Shown here piece after piece: positions 10,223 through 47,355 of a stretch of DNA of 64,000 nucleotides. The stretch comes from a virus: positions 32,001-96,000 of the IMG/VR virus record IMGVR_UViG_3300017973_000001. One strand, given 5' to 3'. Made by a program: the position numbers and the translations under genes. The notes below the pieces were generated by a model that was given only the letters and a program-made list of their open reading frames with translations, searched no databases and was not told where the DNA came from. Every line of letters begins with the position of its first letter. Within the stretch, counting starts at the first letter, position 1.

Positions 10223-11290
10223 GTGATTAAAATGGATCAAAATGAATTACTTCAAAAAATACGTTCAGAATTTGGTGAGCAATCAATGTTCATCTTAGGT
10301 AAAGAAGAAAAATTAATGGATATTAAGGTGCGCCCTTCGGGTTCCCTTCTATTAGATATAGCTTTGGGTGGTGGCTACCCTCAAGGTAGAGTACTTGAAC
10401 TTAATGGTAGAGAAAAGTCCGGTAAGACAACATTACTTAATCTATTAATTGCTGAGTCTCAACTACTTGAACCGGAAAAGACTTGTGCGATTATCGACCT
10501 GGAACACTCTTTTAATCCGGAGTGGGCTAAGAAATTGGGTGTTGATGTAGATAAATTATTCATTACTCAACCGGATACCTACGCTGAGAAAATATTTGAA
10601 ATGATAGAGTTTATGCTGAAAAGTAAAAAGTTCTCTATTATTGGATTAGATTCTATAGCCGGTTTAATCTCAAAAGCTGAGATCGAGGAAGAAAACTATG
10701 AGAATAACTCCCAGGTTGGTGGAACGTCTAAGTTAAATGCTAGAGCAATGAGGAAAATTGTTAATAGTGGTCTTTTAACAGACAGTGGGACAAGCCTGGT
10801 ATTCATCAATCAATTACGTGATAAAATCGGTGGATTTTCTATGTATGGGCCACAGACTACTACGGGTGGTGGCCGAGCTCTGAAACATGCTTATAGCCAG
10901 GTTTTAGAAGTTTCTATTGGAGATTACTTCTCTAAAGGGCAAGGAGATAAAAAGAAAGTATTAGGTCAGCAGATTAAAGTAAAAGTTGCTAAGAATAAGA
11001 TAGCTCCCCCTTTCCGTACTGCTACGATTGATGTTTATTATGAAAATGGTATAGATCGTGTGAGAGAACTTGTACTGGTAGCTAAAGAGATCGGGGTTCT
11101 TCAAGGAACTAGTTGGCTGAAGTTTGTAAATCCTTCTACTGGTGAGATTTACTCAGATGAGGATGGTAAAGAAATTAAATGGAATGGTACAGATAAAACT
11201 TGTGAAGCCCTGGTACAAGATATACAAGAAAATAATGGTATCCTTTACTCACTTCTAGAAGCAACCGTACATGAGACACTTAGGGGGTAA
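10223..11290 (+). CDS. recA: RecA/UvsX recombinase
   Basis: SGSLLLDIALGGGYPQGR, Walker A GREKSGKT, IDLEH, FINQLRDKIG, GGRALK, KNKIAPPFR. Confidence 0.97.
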   Translation: MIKMDQNELLQKIRSEFGEQSMFILGKEEKLMDIKVRPSGSLLLDIALGGGYPQGRVLELNGREKSGKTTLLNLLIAESQLLEPEKTCAIIDLEHSFNPEWAKKLGVDVDKLFITQPDTYAEKIFEMIEFMLKSKKFSIIGLDSIAGLISKAEIEEENYENNSQVGGTSKLNARAMRKIVNSGLLTDSGTSLVFINQLRDKIGGFSMYGPQTTTGGGRALKHAYSQVLEVSIGDYFSKGQGDKKKVLGQQIKVKVAKNKIAPPFRTATIDVYYENGIDRVRELVLVAKEIGVLQGTSWLKFVNPSTGEIYSDEDGKEIKWNGTDKTCEALVQDIQENNGILYSLLEATVHETLRG

Positions 11291-36318: not shown

Positions 36319-36420
36319 TTTAAATACTCTCCTTTTGTGCTCTTGGCACTATTTATGTAGGTATTAAAATACCCCATTGAAAAACCCCTCCGAATAGGGG
36401 AGGGGTTAATCTAGCGATAT

Positions 36421-36636
36421 TTAATTCTTCATAATAGCCAGTATTTCTTTTGCCGTTTTTATATCTTCTTTAGGATTTTCACAATCAATTAGATTGTTCT
36501 CAATATTATGTAGCTCATTTTCAACAATACCTCCAACTATGGAAACTAGTGGAGAGTTATCTTCACGTTCTACGAAAAATAATTCCTTTGCGATACATTC
36601 AGCAATAAATTTTATGTGTTGCTCTTTGAACTCCAC
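36421..36636 (-). CDS. hypothetical protein
   Basis: AAGGAGGT RBS. Confidence 0.6.
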   Translation of the reverse strand: MEFKEQHIKFIAECIAKELFFVEREDNSPLVSIVGGIVENELHNIENNLIDCENPKEDIKTAKEILAIMKN

Positions 36637-36649
36637 AATTAAGACCTCC

Positions 36650-37264
36650 TTAATATTTATAAGTTACATTCTGTACACCATAGTAAGCATTGTTACCGTC
36701 AGCGTCAGTATCGCTACCGTCTCTTGTTAAATCCTTCAATTCAAAGAATAAACAGTATTTACCAGTCTGAGGAGCAACGAACGTTTGTGTAATTGTTTTT
36801 GCAGTTTTAAAGTCCATCACTCCGAATTTTTGTGGTGTACCTATGTCTGTTTTCTGAGTTAGTAAGTAATTATATGCAGTGAATAGAGCCCCACCATTAC
36901 CTTTATCCACACTATCCCATTGTGCAAATCTCACGGTTGCATAAGCAGTATTCAAAGTACCATTAAATGCGTTCTTAAAAACTAGGTGAGATAACATTTT
37001 AAAAGATACCGTGATCTTAGCTCCTTTTTTAACCACGTCAGTTGGTTCAGTTACAAGACCACCCGGTTCTGCAAAGTTAGCTGACCATGTTCTTTGATAG
37101 AATGAACCATTGTTAGCGTAGAAATTTTGATTCGCATAGCCAGGAGAAGATAAATACACTTTCTTAACAACTTTTACTTTTTGTGTTGTTGCTTCAGAAT
37201 GGGGAGGGGCTATTAAACAAGCTCCTACCAATAAAGACATTAATAATTTACCAGTACGTTTCAT
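36650..37264 (-). CDS. secreted protein (signal peptide)
   Basis: GAGGAGG RBS then MKRTGKLLMSLLVGACLIAPPHSEA. Confidence 0.7.
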   Translation of the reverse strand: MKRTGKLLMSLLVGACLIAPPHSEATTQKVKVVKKVYLSSPGYANQNFYANNGSFYQRTWSANFAEPGGLVTEPTDVVKKGAKITVSFKMLSHLVFKNAFNGTLNTAYATVRFAQWDSVDKGNGGALFTAYNYLLTQKTDIGTPQKFGVMDFKTAKTITQTFVAPQTGKYCLFFELKDLTRDGSDTDADGNNAYYGVQNVTYKY

Positions 37265-37265
37265 T

Positions 37266-37511
37266 TTACTTTTCCTCCTCTTTTTTAGGTATGAATGTAG
37301 GACTAAGACATACGCAATAACGGTGTCTATCTTCTTTAAGCTCACAATCTATGTAATACTCAATGTCATTGTCATACTCATCCTCTAATAGTTTCTTACC
37401 TTCCTCATCTAGTATTTTCTCAATGAAGTAGTTTACTAATCCTTGTGGTTCTTCAAATATTATTGTTTCTGTATGACAACCAGTATCACTAAATAATACT
37501 AGTACAACCAT
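37266..37511 (-). CDS. hypothetical protein
   Basis: GAGGAGGT RBS before ATG 37511. Confidence 0.6.
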   Translation of the reverse strand: MVVLVLFSDTGCHTETIIFEEPQGLVNYFIEKILDEEGKKLLEDEYDNDIEYYIDCELKEDRHRYCVCLSPTFIPKKEEEK

Positions 37512-37614
37512 ATGGACCTCCTCATTATACTTTTCGTCATAATTGTTGTAATTTTTTACCAATTGAAAAAACCCCAACCGGAAAGGGGTGGAGGAATTAA
37601 AAAAGGATTAACCA

Positions 37615-38007
37615 TCACACTTGTTTTTGAGCGTGTTGTTTAATCCATTCTATTACATATTCTATTGGTGGTCTTGTTTTGTCATTTGCTACCAGTGAAA
37701 CAAAGTCATAAACTTCTTCATCTGAAGCGATTAAATCGTAACCATTCAAATCAAGAAATGCTGACGTTGACATATACGCAGTACGTTTATTACCATCTTT
37801 AAAACAATGACCTGAAGCTAGAAAGAAAAGGTAAGCTCCGGCTTTATCAAATATTGTAGGGTATTTCTCAAAATCACCAAATCCGGAACATGGAATCATT
37901 AACTTTGCTTCAAGATTACCCGGTTCCCTACCTGGAAAGCCACCGTATAAGTCTAGTGCAACTTGGTGGATATATTCTACTTCATCAACTTCCAAGTAGA
38001 TAACCAT
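37615..38007 (-). CDS. doc: Doc/Fic-family toxin
   Basis: HCFKDGNKRTA Doc-type motif; YPTIFDKAGAY; FLDLNG. Confidence 0.9.
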   Translation of the reverse strand: MVIYLEVDEVEYIHQVALDLYGGFPGREPGNLEAKLMIPCSGFGDFEKYPTIFDKAGAYLFFLASGHCFKDGNKRTAYMSTSAFLDLNGYDLIASDEEVYDFVSLVANDKTRPPIEYVIEWIKQHAQKQV

Positions 38008-38147
38008 TAGTTTTTACTCAATCTTTCTAAAGCTTTACCGTTACGTGCAATAACTTTAGCAACGCTTTTTTCAATCATTTTTTGACGTTCTGTTTTTTCT
38101 TGTTTTTCTTTTAGTAACATTTCATCATCCCTCTTTTTCTCATCCAT
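38007..38147 (-). CDS. short Phd-like antitoxin
   Basis: 46 aa, overlaps doc start, ends VIARNGKALERLSKN; GGGGGTG RBS. Confidence 0.6.
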   Translation of the reverse strand: MDEKKRDDEMLLKEKQEKTERQKMIEKSVAKVIARNGKALERLSKN

Positions 38148-38280
38148 ACCGGACACCCCCAATCTATACTGAATAGTATATGATATGATAGGTTGTCCAG
38201 TTATAGGATAGTTTATTCTAAATATTATATAATTTAAGAATATTCGTCCACAAAAACTATTCGACAAATATTCATAAACA

Positions 38281-38811
38281 CTAGAGTAATATAACTTCTT
38301 CGATATAAGAATTTACTAACTCAGCTCCGTGAGTATCACGTTTCTCATTACCTATAATTAAATTATGCTTGTAAATTTTAGCAAGCAAGTCGTTAGGTAC
38401 ATTCATAGGAACTATTGTTTGAGGTACTGATCCACCCATAGCTACATGTTCACGTAATTCAATATCCGTAAATCGTTGTGAAGGGGCAAAAGAATAATCA
38501 CTTACACAAGTTAATGCCCAATTACATGAGGTAAGGTCTAGGTAATATAAAAGGTAAGGTGCCTTTTCAAATAACGTTTTCATGTATTCACGCATTTCCG
38601 GAATCTCAAATAATTCATCTGTTGTATCGTCATAAGCTGAAGTGAATAGGTTCAGACCTTGAAAGTGCTCTTTATTTAATTGTTTTAAGAAATTAACTAA
38701 CGGCTTTACATAGTTGTTAGTTATGTCTTCACCTTTAATTTGATAAATTATAACTGTTGTTTCTTTAGCTGATTTTCTACGTAAGCTCTCAGCTACCATT
38801 GGGTGTATCAT
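38281..38811 (-). CDS. DUF1817/CRR6-like protein
   Basis: YDD..DELFEIPEMREYM..L....P.LLYYL. Confidence 0.55.
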   Translation of the reverse strand: MIHPMVAESLRRKSAKETTVIIYQIKGEDITNNYVKPLVNFLKQLNKEHFQGLNLFTSAYDDTTDELFEIPEMREYMKTLFEKAPYLLYYLDLTSCNWALTCVSDYSFAPSQRFTDIELREHVAMGGSVPQTIVPMNVPNDLLAKIYKHNLIIGNEKRDTHGAELVNSYIEEVILL

Positions 38812-38821
38812 ATAATTCCTC

Positions 38822-41800
38822 CTAGTTTTTAACCATTGTTGCTAATACTTCAGCTACTTCTTTAGTTATCTCGGCTACTTTTTCTACATCACCGTCAAAC
38901 TTTTCAATTAGTTTATCTACTATCTCATGAGCTTGAGGTGTATCAACCTCTTTCTCATCAACCCATTCCTTACTTACGTCATTATAAGTGCTATCCAACT
39001 TTGTTTGAATGAAGTCATATATGTCTGAGTAGTGTTTATCTTGGAGTTCCCCTAAAAGTTCGTCTACTTTATCTAGGTCATGTAAGTTTTCTTTTTTAAC
39101 TTCATCATCAACTTGAGTTCTATCTTCAATAATCGTCGCCATAGCAACTTCATGAATAGCGTGTGATAAGATAGTGCCATTTGGGTTCTTAGCATAAACT
39201 TTAAAGTATACTCCATGATCGTGGTCCTTAACAACTTCGATAGAGTCTATTTTAAAAAATCCTAATCTACCAATTAGGAAATTTTTAAGTTGAGAACTAC
39301 TCGCTAGACTGAACACTTCTGTTACAGTTTGCCATTCTAAACCCAGTTCTTTAATAACATCATCAACACTTACTAGAGTTTCAACGTAAAAATTAGTTGT
39401 CGTTTTCATAATATCTCCCCTTAAATGTATTGGTCAAACGATACTTTTCTGATTGTGCCTCTTTCTAGGTTGCAAAGAAACAATTTACCTCGGCCACTAT
39501 CAATGTAATGGCCCCGTGCTTTTTGGATAATTTTTATATACTGCTTACCACCGTCAGTATCAATACTGTCCATGAGGTGGGTACCACACGTATGGACAAA
39601 CCAAAGGAATTGCTTTTCGTTATTCTCAACCACTTGCTCAATCCTTGCCATATCATGAATGTAGAAATCATCTTGATAGTGCTCCATGATAGATTTAACT
39701 TTTTTCTCCATGCCTTCTTTTAATTTTTCTAGTTTCATAGTCTCCTCCATATGAAAATCCCTCCCGGAAGGGGGAGGGGGGTAGCTTTTACCTCTTTTAT
39801 ATTACATTCTCGATTCTACCCTCTAAATAATTTTTGTATTCGTCTACTTTGTTAAGATCGTTAGTTAATATGATAGTATAATTGCTTTCCCATACATTTT
39901 TTGTAGTTACTATTGCAATAATATATTTAGCTACATTTTTATTAATATTAATTCTTTCAGCGTCATAAAAAATATAACTATCTAAAAGTGTACCTTCAAA
40001 ACATTGACATTCAATGTCTAACTTTACTGATAAAGATAACACTTCTTCTAATTTATCAGAACTAACATTATTTATCTTAATCATACAGTATCCTTACCTC
40101 CAACTTTCACATGCTTTTTCCAATATTTCTGTGGTAAAGTAATAACTTTATATGTGTAACCTTGTTGCCTAAATGCAAGTTTGTATTCACGCATTAAGTG
40201 GTCTCTATCTGCTTTATCTTCTGCATAATCAAGATGTTCATATGCTCTATCATAAGGTGTTTTAACTAACAACTGAAACATATATCCTTGTTGTGGGTCA
40301 TAAGCTTTTGGGTGTGCCATAATATCCATCCTTTCTAGTTTATATTTAAGGCTTTTCTATATTCCGGTTTGTCTAATATATACCATCCCATTAAATCACC
40401 TTGATTTACCGTAAAGAGTTTGTAACCATCTTTCAATGCTTGTTCTCCGGCTTCAGTATCACTTTTAAATTTTGCGATACCGTACTCATCTAAACAATCA
40501 AGTTTTTGTATGAGTTCTACACCATGTTGGCTATCATAAAAAACGGTGTAACCTCTCTTTAGTTCTTCGGTAGTCCACCCTTGTTCTTTAGAAATTTGTT
40601 CATAATCAACATTACCCATAATAAATACCTCCTAAAGTATTTTTGGAATTAGTAACTCCATGAGTACCCCTATGATCCAGGGAGGGGTACCTAGCAATCA
40701 CTAATTATTTTCGTACCATTCTTTCTGAGATTTAATTGCTTTATTTAAACCATGCTTAAGTTTTTCACTTGCATTAACCTCATCAATCGTAAGACATAAA
40801 GCGTCAAGTGTATCTTCTACATCATAGGTAATTACAAACTCATGATTTCCTAACTCATAGTTGAACATATCAAAGATATATCCGTCTCCCGTTTCATCAC
40901 CTTCAATAGCTTCTTGCCTTTCTTTTTCGTGTCTATTCATCATTTCTTTAAGTTTTTCTGAGTCTGTACGTTTGTAAAATCCACCAGTACCACTAAGGCT
41001 ATATATCTTATCTGTATCCTCCGGTTTTAGTCCAAATTTAGCCATACCTTCATTAAATTGTTCATTACTAAATGCGAAAAACATAGGAAACTCATTAACC
41101 TCTTTTTGTTGTTTATCTTTCAATACTGTATATGCGTTCATTTTAAAATTCCTCCTCATAGTTAAACCCTCCCGGAAGGGGGAGGGCATATTTATTTTAT
41201 TTAACTTCACTAAAAGCTACTAAGTCCTCTAATGCTTCATTCCCGTAAGATACTTGTGTTTCATGGAAACCCCTTTTAACAGACTTGATAAATTTATCTA
41301 CATTTTCATCACTAGTAGGTAAGCCTTTTTTCTCAAGTGCTGACTCAACATCTTCTCTACTCCAACGGATAGTATCAAATACAGTAGATACATCACGAAT
41401 TTCTTCAATGATACCCATACAACCTAATAAACTTCGGATTTCACTCTCACTAAAATTAGTGTCTATTGTAATACTATATTTCATTTCCCAATTCCTCCTA
41501 GTCTAATGTAGTAACTGCATATAACTTTTCACTGGTATATTTTTCTGCAATTAATATAATTCTATCTACCATCTTTCTCTGAATATTGGTAGACTGTGTG
41601 AAAATAGGTAGGTCGATCTTCAACCATTTTGGGCGTTTAAATTCTGTATGTTCTAATAAGGTAACTCCGTTATTAAACTCCTCATTAGTGGTATAGATTT
41701 TAACCCACCCACTATCTAAACCGTACTGGTTTTCATCAAGACCTTTAACAGTATCAGCTATTTCACCTTTATACGGTTCAATACATTCTTTGATACGATT

Positions 41801-44800
41801 TTCAAAGTTTGTGATTGAGTCATTCAGCTCCGATAACTCAAGTTCACCCATTTGCTTAGTCTTGAATGAAGCTTGAATGGTTTTAGCTATTCTACTATCC
41901 ATGCGACCTTCACATAGTTTAGTGAACTCATCACGGGTAACACTTTCATCTGTGTACACTTCAGACCAACCGGACTCAACTAATAAAATTTGGTTTGCAT
42001 ATAAGCCGTAACTCATAAGATATTTATTCCCGGTTTTATTAATCTCATATCGGTAGATAAAAGGACAGTCACGATTCCACCAATCATATACAAACTTAGG
42101 TGTTAAACTAGGGGAGTAATTAATTTCATCATTTAGCTCAAACCCATAGAATGTATCAATACTGTTTTCATCAATCTCAACTTCATTTAGGTAAGGTCTA
42201 ATCTCATTTACACGAAGGAAATATTCTAGGAATTTGAGATTAATAGATAGATTGTATTCACCAACTGTATTGTGTCTAACAATACATCTACTAGGTACTT
42301 TAAATTGGGTTGTACCATCTAAAAACTTCATTCTTACTCTAATCACTGTACTGCTAGCTTTCTCAATCAAAAGCTTTATCTTTTTCACATTAGGTCCTCC
42401 TTGTGCTCAGTGGCACTAATTTAGGTAATAGTTACCCCATAGTACTCACAACTATTTTCCGTTCGTTGTGAGCACTAGCAATAACTATTAAGTCACTGCA
42501 ACCTATAATCCAAAAACAATTAGGAGTTGGAGTGTTTGACACTCCTTGATACACCCCACCCGTGGATCATAAGGGGGGAGGTGCATTAGGAATTTCAAAC
42601 TCACTTAATGTAAGCGTATTGTGGTGTACGTTCACCTAACTTGTACCCAATTAGGTCAGTATATTCTTGTTCGATAATATGAGGATTCTCTTTTAGTAAG
42701 TTAGCCTTAGCTTCTTCAATATCAGCTCCAGTAGAAAACCCTAATACTTGATAGTTTTCACATTCATCACCATCTTTAGGGGGAAGGGTAACTCCTTGTT
42801 CATTAATGAATATCCAGTGTTGAACGCCCTCATGCTTTTGTTTCATTTTCTATTTCCTCCTTATTTTCCTCACCTAAATTGTGTACATCAAACACATCTC
42901 TTACTTTTTCCATTATTTCTTGCTTATCTGTTAATCGGTTATTTCCTTCTTCGCCAAAATCTTCACCCTCGAACAATTCCATAAAACTAACTGCGTCATC
43001 TAATGCCCAGTACAACATAACAATTAGTCTATCCTTATCCGAGGCTTTCTCAATACATCGTTCAGAACAGAAGTTAGAACTTCCAATACACCAACCTTCT
43101 GTAAACCCATTATGGCAAACTGTACACTCTCTCACTTTCACTGGTTTTCCTCCTTATTTCCCACCCCGGAGGGTGGGGGCTCCTATTAAAGTATTCCTCG
43201 TTCTACTAGCATATCGTCAATTTCACAAGTGTAAGCGTCCCATACCCACTCTTTAAGTCTACCGTTATCATCAAGGATACTTCTATCATTAGGTAAGTCC
43301 TCACCTTGTATTGTGAACAAGTGCTCCTCACCTTCATCTACTACAATAATTTCGTCACGTCTAGGTGAGTATTGCACTTCAAAGTACGTCCAAGTAGAAG
43401 GCCACCCTAGAATTACCTCTACACTCTCTAAGTCCATGTGCTTTAAACCAATAAACGAATACATATGGTCTACGATAGATATTCCATTCGTCGCAACCCA
43501 CCACTCATTACCAACACATGAGTAATAATGTAACTCTCTACCTTGAGGGTCTACATACTCATGCACATCACTACGTAAATCGAACGTTAATACTTCACCT
43601 TTCTCATCACGGACAACTTCAATTTTTCCGTAAAATTCTTCATCACTCATTCTTACAAGCTCTGTAACTGCTGACATATTAATTTCCTCCTTGTGCTCAA
43701 TGGCACTCTAGTTTTTGAAGTATAGGTAACTCCATGAGTACCCCCCGGATCGAGGGAGGGGGTACCTAGCAACTACCTATTGACGATTACCTTAATTAAT
43801 CCCCGTTTAAATCGTTATAATTAATCATGCTACGGCAAGCTCTTAATTGGTGTTCTAGTTCTTCTTTATCAACTTCAATCCCTGTATCCTGAATCCCTTT
43901 GAATACGAATAGTGAAACAACAGTTAGAAAGGTGTCGTACTGTTCAATTTCACTAAGAACTTGATTGATTTGTTCAGTTGTTAAGTTTAGATTAAGTATT
44001 TCTTTTGCAATCACTTCTACTTCATTACGAATTGAAAAATCTGTTTTGTTCATGCGTTCACCTCATTCATAAGTTTTTGTTCTTTACAACGCTTACGCCA
44101 GTTGAGAGCGTGTTTATTTTCTGTAGGGGAGAGCTTCAGTAATATATGGTCAGTCGCTCCAAAGTAGAAAGGCATAACACTCTCGTCCATTATTTTATAC
44201 GAAACTTCATTACCTTTTTGTTCAGTTAAAACAATAACTCCCACAACTTTTCCAGTGTGGGAGCTCTCTACTGCTAAATATACGGTTGTACCTACTTGCT
44301 CTGAAGCTTTTACCTTGACTTCATTTTCTTCTATCATATCAACTACAAATTTCTCAACACTAACTCCACTTGAAATACTTTCTGTCCACCAACCCATTAT
44401 TAATTCCTCCTTTATTCAACCCAAAAGTAAGCATAAATTTCTTCGTTATCGTTATCCTCTTGGCAATAAGCCAGTACTTGCTCATCACCTCTAAGTAAAA
44501 ACGCTTGTATCTTATAGGTTTTTTCAGTTTGACTATCGAACACTGGTATTGAACCACCGACTACCCAAAGAGCGTCATGCTCACCGTGATGGCTACCACT
44601 AATAGGAGCTACCTCGTAATCAAAAGAATATTCAAGTTCAGTTAATATACACTCTACTATTCTTTGAATACCCATAAACTCTACGAAGTTCAGTTTTTCT
44701 TTAAGGTTACTTAAATCAACGTCTTGACCAACTTTTTCTAATTCCCACATAATGAGACCTCCTAAATATATTGGAGTATAGGTAACTCCATTGAAAGCCC

Positions 44801-47355
44801 ACCGGTGGGGGTGGACTCTCTAGCAACTACCTATTAAGCATTAACTGGTGAGCCTACTGGTTTATATACATTCAACCCAATTTTGATACCGTCTTTACCG
44901 GGCACTGATTTATTTCCTTGTGTGCTTGCAATAATTTGTGACTTACCACTTGATGATAAACCGTAGTCTTTATCAAGCTCAACCACGATAGTTAATTTGT
45001 TACCTTTGATTGTCATTTGTACGTTTTGCATTATAATTTCCTCCTATGTGCTCAACGGCACTCTGTTTTAGAGTTGATAACTCCACAAGTACCCCCATGA
45101 TCCAGGGGAGGGGTACCTAGCAACCATCAACGATACATTACTTCAATCCTAGATAGGTCAACGTGATTTTTACCTACTAAGAATCCAACCCTATCAGAAA
45201 TTCTCCAACCATTATCGACGGTAAAGTGTACATTACCACGTACAGTATATACATATGACTCACCGTGTTTTTCTTTCACTTGCTCCAACAATGCTTCAGC
45301 TTCTTTACTGGTAGCTATCTCGTAGTTACCATGTTCATCTACTACTAAATCTGCTTTTTCCTTAAATTCCTCAAACGTCATAGTATTCCCTCCTTAATTA
45401 ACACGTCCCACAATAAGAGATTGCAAGTTCTATAGGGTTTTGTCCAGGGTCATCATGCTCAGTTCCGATAAAGTCACGTCTGCATATATCACAAGTATCC
45501 CAAACAATGCCAACCTCGTTGTTAACGTGGTTAAGCAGTATGTTATAAGGTTTCTCATATCCATGTACGAACTGAGAAGGGATGAGTTTAACTGTTTCTC
45601 CAAATTGTTGCGTAGTTCCTAAAGCCATTTTGTTGAACCTCCTTGTCGTCTGATGAAGTTCTGTAATTCCTTAATACGTTCGTTATTCTTCTTCAGCTTC
45701 TTGAAATCATAGTCAATACCCATGTTTTCAAATTCAAGGTTACGTATCTCTCTTTCAGCTTGTTCGATTGTCATATGAGAACCCTCCGATTTTAGTTTTT
45801 GGGTAGGCCCCCGTGGATCATAGGGGGTGGGGGGGGGCTACCAATTAGTTAGTTACTTTTGCCAACCATAACCAACTTCCTCTAAGTATTCTAAAAACTC
45901 ATCTAATACGTTGTTCATCTTAAAGCCTCCTAAAGTTTTTGGATTGATAACTCCATGCTATCTCCACCCATTGATGAGGAGGGTGGAAATACGTAGCAAT
46001 TATCAATCAGCTACTATTGTGTAAAGGTTACAGTTCTCGATAGTCTTACTAGTTCCATTAGCAAACCCAATAGCTCTTACATTTTCAGTGCCAGTATATT
46101 TCACATCTACACAAGTCTGCTCATCACCAGGAGCCATTACACATAATGTTACATACTTACCGTGAGGTAATTTCACTGATAAGGTGTGCATAGAGTTGCC
46201 AGTTCTTGGGGCTAACCCCGATAAGTCTATAAGTGAGTGGTCACAGTTATTGAAGGTAGGATATGTCTTAATATCTAACTCCTCCATTAGCTCCGGTGTA
46301 ACCGTACCGATATAAACTTTCTTCTTTAAATCGATTGCCATTGTAAATTCCTCCTATATGGTTGTTTTGGATTAAGGGTAGGTACCCTTATTGGAGCTCC
46401 CACTGGTGGGGGCAACCTAAAGATTACCTACATGAATAATGGCATGATGATGAAGAATATAATAGATAACCCACATATACCTCCAACTGCTAACCCTATA
46501 AGGAGTGTGTTCAGTATGTCTTGACCTCTAAGTACATAAGCTTTCTTAAGTAGGGTAGTATCACCATCAAATACACGCTCTGTTAATTCGTTCAAACTAC
46601 CTTTGCCATACTGTATAGGTCTTGAATTAGGTTGAGCACCTTCACCCATACGGATTTTTGCTAACTTTTCACTAACTGTCATCATTAAAATTACCTCGTT
46701 TCAATTTTCTGATTTTTTACACTCATAATTTTACGGTTACATAAAAAAGAGAGCCGATAATGATACGGTTACACCGTACATATTTACCGACTCTAAAAGG
46801 GGACCTAATAGATACTTATATGGGGTATCTGTTCAAGGCACTAAAACAGTACCTTTACGCAAGAATGGGGGACGGGGAATGTACCTTTTGGGGTGTGAAT
46901 ATAATAGCTTCTTGCTCCCAATTTAGTACACTCATATAACTTACCTTCCTCAATACGGTATCTAGTACCTTCCCATTTAACTACGCAACTTTTAATAGCT
47001 CTAATCATGTTCAACACTCCTTTTAGTATTTTGAACACATACTCCATAAAAAGTTCAGTCTACAACTCTACCCCTATTCACAAGGGAGGGGGGGGGCTTA
47101 AAGCTGACGTACTCTACTAACAAAACTCATAGTATAGTTCATATATAGAGTACATATAGATACAAGTCCATCACGTAACCTATTACTCTCTTTCTCTGCT
47201 AACTTCTCAATACGTTTGTTCACGCTATGTACAAACTCTGCTGAATACATTACTCTAACTCTCTCAATACAAGTCAGTCCTTCAATTACTTGCTGAGCCA
47301 CTGACTCCACATTTTCCATATATTCCTCTATATCTAACGTAAATAGTCTCATCAT
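38822..47355 (-). other. early (host-takeover-like) cluster of ~22 small CDS (38822-39409, 39421-39738, 39797-40084, 40081-40329, 40335-40619, 40701-41141, 41197-41484, 41498-42388, 42601-42846, 42830-43141, 43186-43677, 43796-44053, 44050-44397, 44412-44750, 44834-45031, 45127-45381, 45398-45628, 46003-46341, 46428-46685, 46841-47008, 47098-47355)
   Basis: same strand, mostly strong AGGAGG RBSs, separated by GC-rich stem-loops. Confidence 0.75.
46743..46794 (-). terminator. intrinsic terminator inside the early region
   Basis: AGAGUCGGUAA...UUAUCGGCUCU stem followed by U-tract. Confidence 0.7.

Follow-up and report, generated by a model that had tools for sequence, protein, structure and literature searches.

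The stretch of DNA analyzed here (the window) comprises 64,000 nucleotides and corresponds to bases 32001-96000 of the IMG/VR record IMGVR_UViG_3300017973_000001, a complete phage genome of 109,430 bp with terminal repeats and a G+C content of 35%. Positions of elements given below refer to the window unless stated otherwise. Between about 49 kb and about 33 kb, the window contains an early block of small genes that run leftward on the minus strand and possess strong AGGAGG ribosome sites. Nine hairpin elements that share a conserved core are located between genes of this block. Here, we provide evidence supporting, at the level of sequence and predicted fold, that these elements are new members of the family of Bs-RNase III processing sites present in the early messages of the phages SP82 and SPO1.

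The portal protein of the phage shares 65% identity with that of its nearest relative in IMG/VR, a 103-kb contig (G001), and 45% identity with the portals of Brevibacillus phage Jenst and Bacillus phage EZ-2018a. The closest cultured relatives, the Jenst-like phages, infect Brevibacillus and Bacillus, and, as judged from these comparisons, the carrier phage is unrelated to Herelleviridae. When the region was compared with cultured phages by megablast, no match was obtained. Likewise, no RNA sequencing run that contains this DNA was found listed, which counts neither for nor against the proposal made below. Among ten early genes scanned, a single one matched a PHROG family, whose function is not known, and none matched a named family. 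Searching the phage proteins did not reveal an RNase III gene or domain; a phage-encoded RNase III was therefore rejected, and the enzyme acting in the process proposed below would be that of the host.

The whole 109,430-bp genome was scanned with a strict pattern, TYGCTA-N15-50-RTGGRGT. This gave seven matches, all on the minus strand and all in the window between 36.3 and 46.0 kb, with cores at 36371-36417, 40655-40697, 42434-42481, 43729-43772, 44785-44826, 45080-45123 and 45950-45999. For comparison, first-order random genomes contained a mean of 0.6 matches and a maximum of 3. A covariance model trained solely on the copies of this phage (R1) added two degenerate copies, at 42534-42600 and 46378-46431. 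The count of seven copies plus two variants made in the initial annotation of this DNA is thus correct in all essentials: there are seven canonical and two degenerate copies, and all nine lie on the mRNA strand, which is the minus strand, within 36.3-46.4 kb; the rest of the genome contains none.

The elements have a length of about 55-67 nt, and all seven canonical copies take one common shape with a folding energy of -24 to -32 kcal/mol. From the base upwards, this shape consists of an AU-rich outer stem of 11 bp, an unpaired G, a C-G pair, a small, asymmetric internal loop and a GC-rich hairpin. UUGCUAG forms the 5' half of the core and AUGGAGU its 3' half, and the core includes an invariant U-G pair; the bulged G in the core is predicted by the modeled fold. 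The outer stems had been described as varying in sequence while maintaining their pairing, and our analysis bears this out. In the canonical copies, 94% of the cells of the outer stem are paired and 9 of the 12 pairs show changes on both sides, whereas none of 500 shuffles reached the observed pairing and covariation, and the fraction of paired cells was 25-50% in slid registers. Each copy contains one to five G-U pairs, due to which the fold is better by 6.4 kcal/mol on the mRNA strand.

The assignment of the elements to the SP82/SPO1 family is based on searches in both directions. On the one hand, R1 gave five matches on the 132-kb SPO1 genome, with E-values of 1.4e-5 to 0.56, all of them located in intergenic spacers of the host-takeover module and all carrying the core GGUUGCUAG, a GC hairpin, and then AUGGAGCC. 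GenBank record AF031901 annotates six features as "RNAse III site", named RS-A to RS-F, and four of the five matches correspond to RS-A, RS-B, RS-C and RS-D. On the other hand, a model built solely from sites of SPO1, SP82G, SP8 and Goe16 (R3) was run unfiltered over the whole window. Its top eight matches were the seven canonical copies and one variant, i.e., eight of the nine local copies (E 4e-7 to 0.014), and noise began at an E-value of 1.5. Because R1 finds RS-A to RS-D and R3 ranks eight of the nine local copies on top, the two sets belong to the same family. In a joint alignment of 26 distinct sequences the core is evident, 90% of the cells are paired and compensatory changes are present in 19 of 21 pairs; the corresponding slid controls are paired for 30-52%.

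Among the functions that the initial annotation had considered, it is therefore that of a processing site that gains support from core and fold, which are those of the annotated sites RS-A to RS-D. The accompanying remark that the motif was not recognized overstates its novelty, as it is the same motif as that of the SP82/SPO1 sites. A search of Rfam, which had been proposed as a check, returned no match for the window at gathering score or at E-values up to 1, and the SPO1 sites likewise matched nothing. Nonetheless, the family itself is already present in the literature and in GenBank: Bs-RNase III sites of SP82/SPO1 early messages have reportedly been the subject of work by Panganiban and Whiteley in 1983, Mitra and Bechhofer in 1994, and Stewart et al. 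in 1998. What is new here is a set of members in a phage unrelated to Herelleviridae.

The fifth element detected in SPO1 is located on the minus strand at 10535-10600 of AF031901 (12220-12285 of NC_011421), between genes 57 and 58. It has the full core and fold and its score is on par with that of RS-C; the record shows only the terminator TL2.7 at this position.

The elements occupy intercistronic positions on the sense strand of the early polycistronic unit. Eight copies directly follow a gene, and in seven of them the stop codon of that gene begins at most 3 nt from the 5' end of the stem, in line with the overlap with upstream stop codons noted in the initial annotation. A strong Shine-Dalgarno (SD) sequence is located 12-40 nt downstream of the stem. 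No excess of internal promoter-like sites was found in the early block.

A second fold is conserved together with the first. The segment starting at AUGGAG can, by itself, refold into a small hairpin that begins at its second nucleotide, and this is the case for 24 of the 26 family members. In this hairpin, the GGAGU of the core pairs with a tail located just past the outer stem, and tail and core are co-adapted: in the present phage ACUCCA is found with GGAGU, ACC with GGGGU, and ACCCUU with AAGGGU, and in the SPO1 group GGCUAC is found with GGAGCC. Native fragments fold at -6.0 kcal/mol, as compared to -2.9 kcal/mol when core and tail are swapped between the two subfamilies. An example is the segment 44772-44790 (minus strand), in which UGGAGU is followed by the 3' arm as loop and by ACUCCA; equivalent hairpins are located on the same strand at about 45940-45955, 45069-45085, 43716-43734, 42423-42437, 40644-40660 and 36355-36377. 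According to these fold predictions, the conserved second fold fits a role in which the message would be cut and its new 5' end capped.

The nine copies, all on the minus strand, differ in several details. The first copy in the operon is the degenerate one at 46378-46431, which has the outer stem GUAGGUA/UACCUAC and a decayed core (5' side, AUCUUUAG; 3' side, AAUAAGGGU). It is detected by R1 with an E-value of 0.005-0.007, folds at -22 kcal/mol and retains the second hairpin AAGGGU/ACCCUU. The canonical copies at 45942-46008 and 45073-45131 both contain the UGA stop codon of the preceding gene inside their 5' arm, and the latter has the variant GUGGAGU on the 3' side of the core. They are followed by the canonical copies at 44778-44834 and 43722-43780, the second of which is found by R3 with an E-value of 1e-5. 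The region 42426-42600 contains a tandem pair without a gene in between: a decayed copy lies upstream (42534-42600; core halves UUCCUAAU, 5', and CAAGGAGU, 3'; R1 E=6e-6, R3 E=0.002), and it is followed by a canonical copy (42426-42490) that has the AUGGGGU variant and an inner hairpin that is not C/G-rich. The copy at 40647-40706, also canonical, is the best scorer and contains the UAG stop codon of the preceding gene inside its 5' arm. The last of the series, the canonical copy at 36367-36422, has the core UCGCUAG/AUGGGGU, and its inner hairpin is followed by five uridines. The initial claim that the elements possess no U-tract hence applies to eight of the nine copies, but not to this last one.

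Some copies are mosaics of each other. Those at 43722-43780 and 44778-44834 have an identical outer stem and different inner hairpins, and the copies at 40647-40706, 43722-43780 and 45073-45131 have the inner hairpin GGUACCCC...GGGGUAC in common and differ in their outer stems. These combinations suggest exchange between copies, and recombination between copies as a side effect is plausible. As to the genes of the block, 35 early proteins include a single pair of paralogs, which are encoded on the minus strand at 43186-43677 and 45127-45381 and share 33% identity over 82 residues (E=1e-7).

Other hairpins are present in the same operon. A small GUGCC-loop-GAGCAC hairpin is located on the minus strand downstream of four copies: at 45048-45061, where it abuts the SD sequence downstream of the 45.1-kb copy, at 43693-43706 (43.7-kb copy), at 42403-42416 (42.4-kb copy) and at 36337-36349 (36.4-kb copy). 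The motif GUGCC-(3-4 nt)-GAGCAC occurs only at these four sites in the genome and ends 1-2 nt ahead of the SD sequence. Because its stem is invariant, the structure of this small hairpin remains predicted only. Plain C-rich/G-rich hairpins, some with short U runs, are found between other genes of the operon on the minus strand, at about 37565-37605, 39759-39778, 41167-41186, 43160-43177 and 45795-45842. Both the last of these and the degenerate copy at 42534-42600, in its inner hairpin, contain the loop word GGAUCAU, which is present in the opposite orientation in inner hairpins of large elements. We do not count the hairpin at about 37560-37610 among the family; it obtained no model score and looks like a plain terminator.

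The distribution of the family was analyzed in other genomes. When IMG/VR was scanned for the two core words, at least 118 stretches were obtained, together about 1 Mb of DNA, and among the matches listed one stretch passed the model. The core words are therefore non-specific without the fold, and the specificity of the model is good, since about 1 Mb of DNA selected by these words yielded, among the matches listed, one genuine member. This member is located at 41750-41802 on the plus strand of IMGVR_UViG_3300045988_145181 (locus L130 in G003), a complete and unrelated phage of 49 kb with a G+C content of 31%. It reads GGUUGCUAG...AUGGAGUU, has a covarying outer stem and is situated about 35 nt before an SD sequence and AUG. 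Scans with a tail-extended pattern returned SPO1, a contig that is SPO1-like, and a weak candidate (L175). Some two dozen contigs that look unrelated (IMG/VR loci L164-L203) also fit this pattern, with exactly 66 nt between the ends, but do not pass the RNA model; a different conserved sequence is probably common to them. The exact subfamily pattern found nothing in viral or metagenome contigs, and the SPO1-type pattern gave seven matches in 185,579 bacterial and archaeal species genomes, none of which passes the model. No metagenome contig was found with the 296-aa early protein, and a genome search with the endolysin found nothing either.

How might these elements function? According to PMC1935012, which cites Mitra and Bechhofer 1994, Bs-RNase III cuts SP82 early-RNA substrates with internal loops once, on the downstream side of the stem, and PMC7509114 and PMC11805744, citing Hue et al. 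1995, describe a 5' stabilizer on SP82 early RNA that depends on a ribosome site. We consider it likely that the nine elements act as signals for mRNA processing between cistrons and are of this SP82/SPO1 type, and we infer cleavage, its position and its stabilizing effects as follows. The long leftward early transcript would fold a hairpin of about 55-67 nt at each gene boundary, and host RNase III would cleave this hairpin at one point of its 3' strand, close to the internal loop. The upstream message would then be left ending in the GC hairpin, which should slow down 3' exonucleases, and in the downstream fragment GGAGU and its co-adapted tail would refold into a small hairpin at the very 5' end. 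This 5' hairpin would be followed by the strong AGGAGG site, with the second small hairpin ahead of that site in four copies, and together these features should block 5' decay of the RNase J1 type. The outcome would be separately stable monocistronic or short messages.

A more far-reaching idea, about which we remain rather skeptical, is that the element constitutes a portable "cut-and-cap" cassette. Such a cassette would combine a positive recognition code of about 13 nt for Bacillus-type RNase III, including the unpaired G and the fixed U-G pair, with a built-in refolding that caps the new 5' end. It might have moved between unrelated phage lineages, i.e., the SPO1-like myoviruses, the present 109-kb phage that is distantly related to Jenst, and the 49-kb phage, or have arisen in them by convergence, and recombination within the ORFan block might, in addition, take place at its mosaic copies.

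Several points weigh against the elements being processing signals. The position of the new 5' end at the base of the second hairpin is our deduction. Only three SP82 sites are known to have been mapped experimentally, and the RS labels of SPO1 are annotations. In addition, the SPO1 sites RS-E and RS-F look different and obtained no model score; hence, the features named "RNase III site" and those carrying the present motif are different sets. Finally, no copy was found in the 103-kb contig with the 65% identical portal, either with the two models or with a relaxed pattern combined with a stem test, and none was found in the genomes of Jenst and EZ-2018a. The early block of the 103-kb contig is not homologous to that of the present phage.

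These points have to be considered together with other explanations for the conserved features. The core, in which about 13 nucleotides are fixed, a U-G pair is invariant and one G is unpaired, is more sequence-specific than classical RNase III substrates require. It could therefore be argued that the conserved internal loop is an operator for another RNA-binding protein, of phage or host origin, that controls translation or stability without obligatory cleavage; such a factor could be encoded by one of the early genes, which are ORFans. However, the same core is present in SPO1-like myoviruses and in the unrelated 49-kb phage, and a phage-encoded factor that they share is not apparent, as no named PHROG family was matched by any of the ten early proteins scanned. 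A common host factor is therefore the more economical explanation for a core that is shared across unrelated proteomes. As the SPO1 counterparts are, moreover, annotated as RNase III sites, we regard a separate RNA-binding protein as unlikely. We are slightly more doubtful still about a two-state switch that is actuated by ribosomes and involves no nuclease, in which translation termination in the 5' arm would melt the outer stem, upon which the 3' half would flip and set the translation of the next gene. The stop codon within 3 nt of the stem base in seven of eight cases and the two mutually exclusive folds, both conserved, would suit such a switch, but the main fold, at -24 to -32 kcal/mol, compares with an alternative of -4 to -10 kcal/mol, a gap that makes switching of the uncut RNA unfavorable. 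Furthermore, neither fold ever sequesters the SD sequence, and family members of SP82 are cleaved, as stated in PMC1935012.

The initial annotation had also raised the option of cassette recombination. In this case, the elements would act at the DNA level, as attC-like or PeSL-like sites that shuffle gene cassettes. This reading draws on their location at the gene boundaries of a hypervariable ORFan block, on the mosaicism of outer stems and inner hairpins, and on the presence of a tyrosine recombinase gene in the genome. However, the sole tyrosine recombinase is Xer-like and scores 107 bits as compared to an integron-integrase cut-off of 265, and the G-U pairs, with the 6.4 kcal/mol they confer on the mRNA strand, make the fold specific to the transcript. 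RYYYAAC/GTTRRRY boxes are absent by inspection, the homologous elements of SPO1-like phages are annotated as RNA sites, and no close relative was found in which breakpoints could show, so that we consider this option highly improbable. The recombinase in question has 282 aa, is encoded at genome positions G000:C1:25937-26785, about 5.2-6.1 kb before the start of the window, and scores 202 bits as XerC, below the equivalog cut-off. It is just as improbable, in our opinion, that the early transcript is terminated or attenuated at the elements, with these acting as intrinsic terminators or attenuators. The GC-rich inner hairpins, the five uridines of the 36.4-kb copy and the plain GC hairpins of similar style in the same operon do resemble terminators, but the other eight copies lack a U-tract and continue with the outer stem and then A-rich sequence, and neither a conserved internal loop nor a covarying outer stem is a feature of terminators. 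Two other candidates were rejected: a K-turn, by eye, because tandem G-A pairs in the right register are absent, and a promoter, because no -10 partner accompanies TTGCTA and there is no enrichment of promoter-like sites.

With these elements, a forty-year-old and little-used family of model substrates extends past the SPO1 group. Not only the shape but also the core sequence is kept in an unrelated phage, which argues that Bacillus-type RNase III, or a partner of it, reads specific bases, and the natural variants offer a ready mutational series for analyzing the base specificity of the enzyme. The conserved second hairpin suggests how, in hosts that degrade RNA with 5' exonucleases, phages may stabilize a cut message on either side of the cut. 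In practical terms, the analysis reveals a gap in Rfam, from which the SP82/SPO1-type site family is missing, so that its members are flagged as new time and again.

Compared with the SP82/SPO1 sites, the present elements have the same core, UUGCUAG/AUGGAG with an unpaired G and a U-G pair, and the same architecture of outer stem, internal loop and GC hairpin. Both occupy intercistronic positions on the sense strand, within early operons that consist of small ORFan genes, and both have a conserved second hairpin from the second nucleotide of AUGGAG and a strong SD sequence downstream. They differ in that the outer stem is AU-rich here and closes with AUU/AGU, whereas theirs closes with GGUU/AGCC; in the tail of the second fold, which is A(C/U)UCCA here and GGCUAC there; and in the extra GUGCC-GAGCAC hairpin before the SD sequence in four copies of the present phage. 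In addition, the carrier is unrelated to Herelleviridae, and cleavage, which is established for SP82, is only presumed for this phage. The early RNase III signals of T7 (R0.3, R0.5, R1, R1.1 and R1.3) are likewise intercistronic hairpins with an asymmetric internal loop, and, according to PMC1935012, they receive a single cut on the 3' side that leaves a 3' hairpin on the upstream message. However, there is no sequence relationship with them, the host enzyme differs, and the T7 sites lack a comparable fixed core. Finally, the 5' stabilizers of B. subtilis, such as the polypurine/ribosome binding site element of SP82 and the aprE and gsiB leaders, resemble the present elements in having a strong SD sequence and/or a 5'-proximal hairpin near the new 5' end, and PMC7509114 and PMC11805744 describe them as protecting against 5' decay. 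Unlike in those leaders, the 5' hairpin in the present phage is predicted to form only after cleavage, by the refolding of one half of the processing site.

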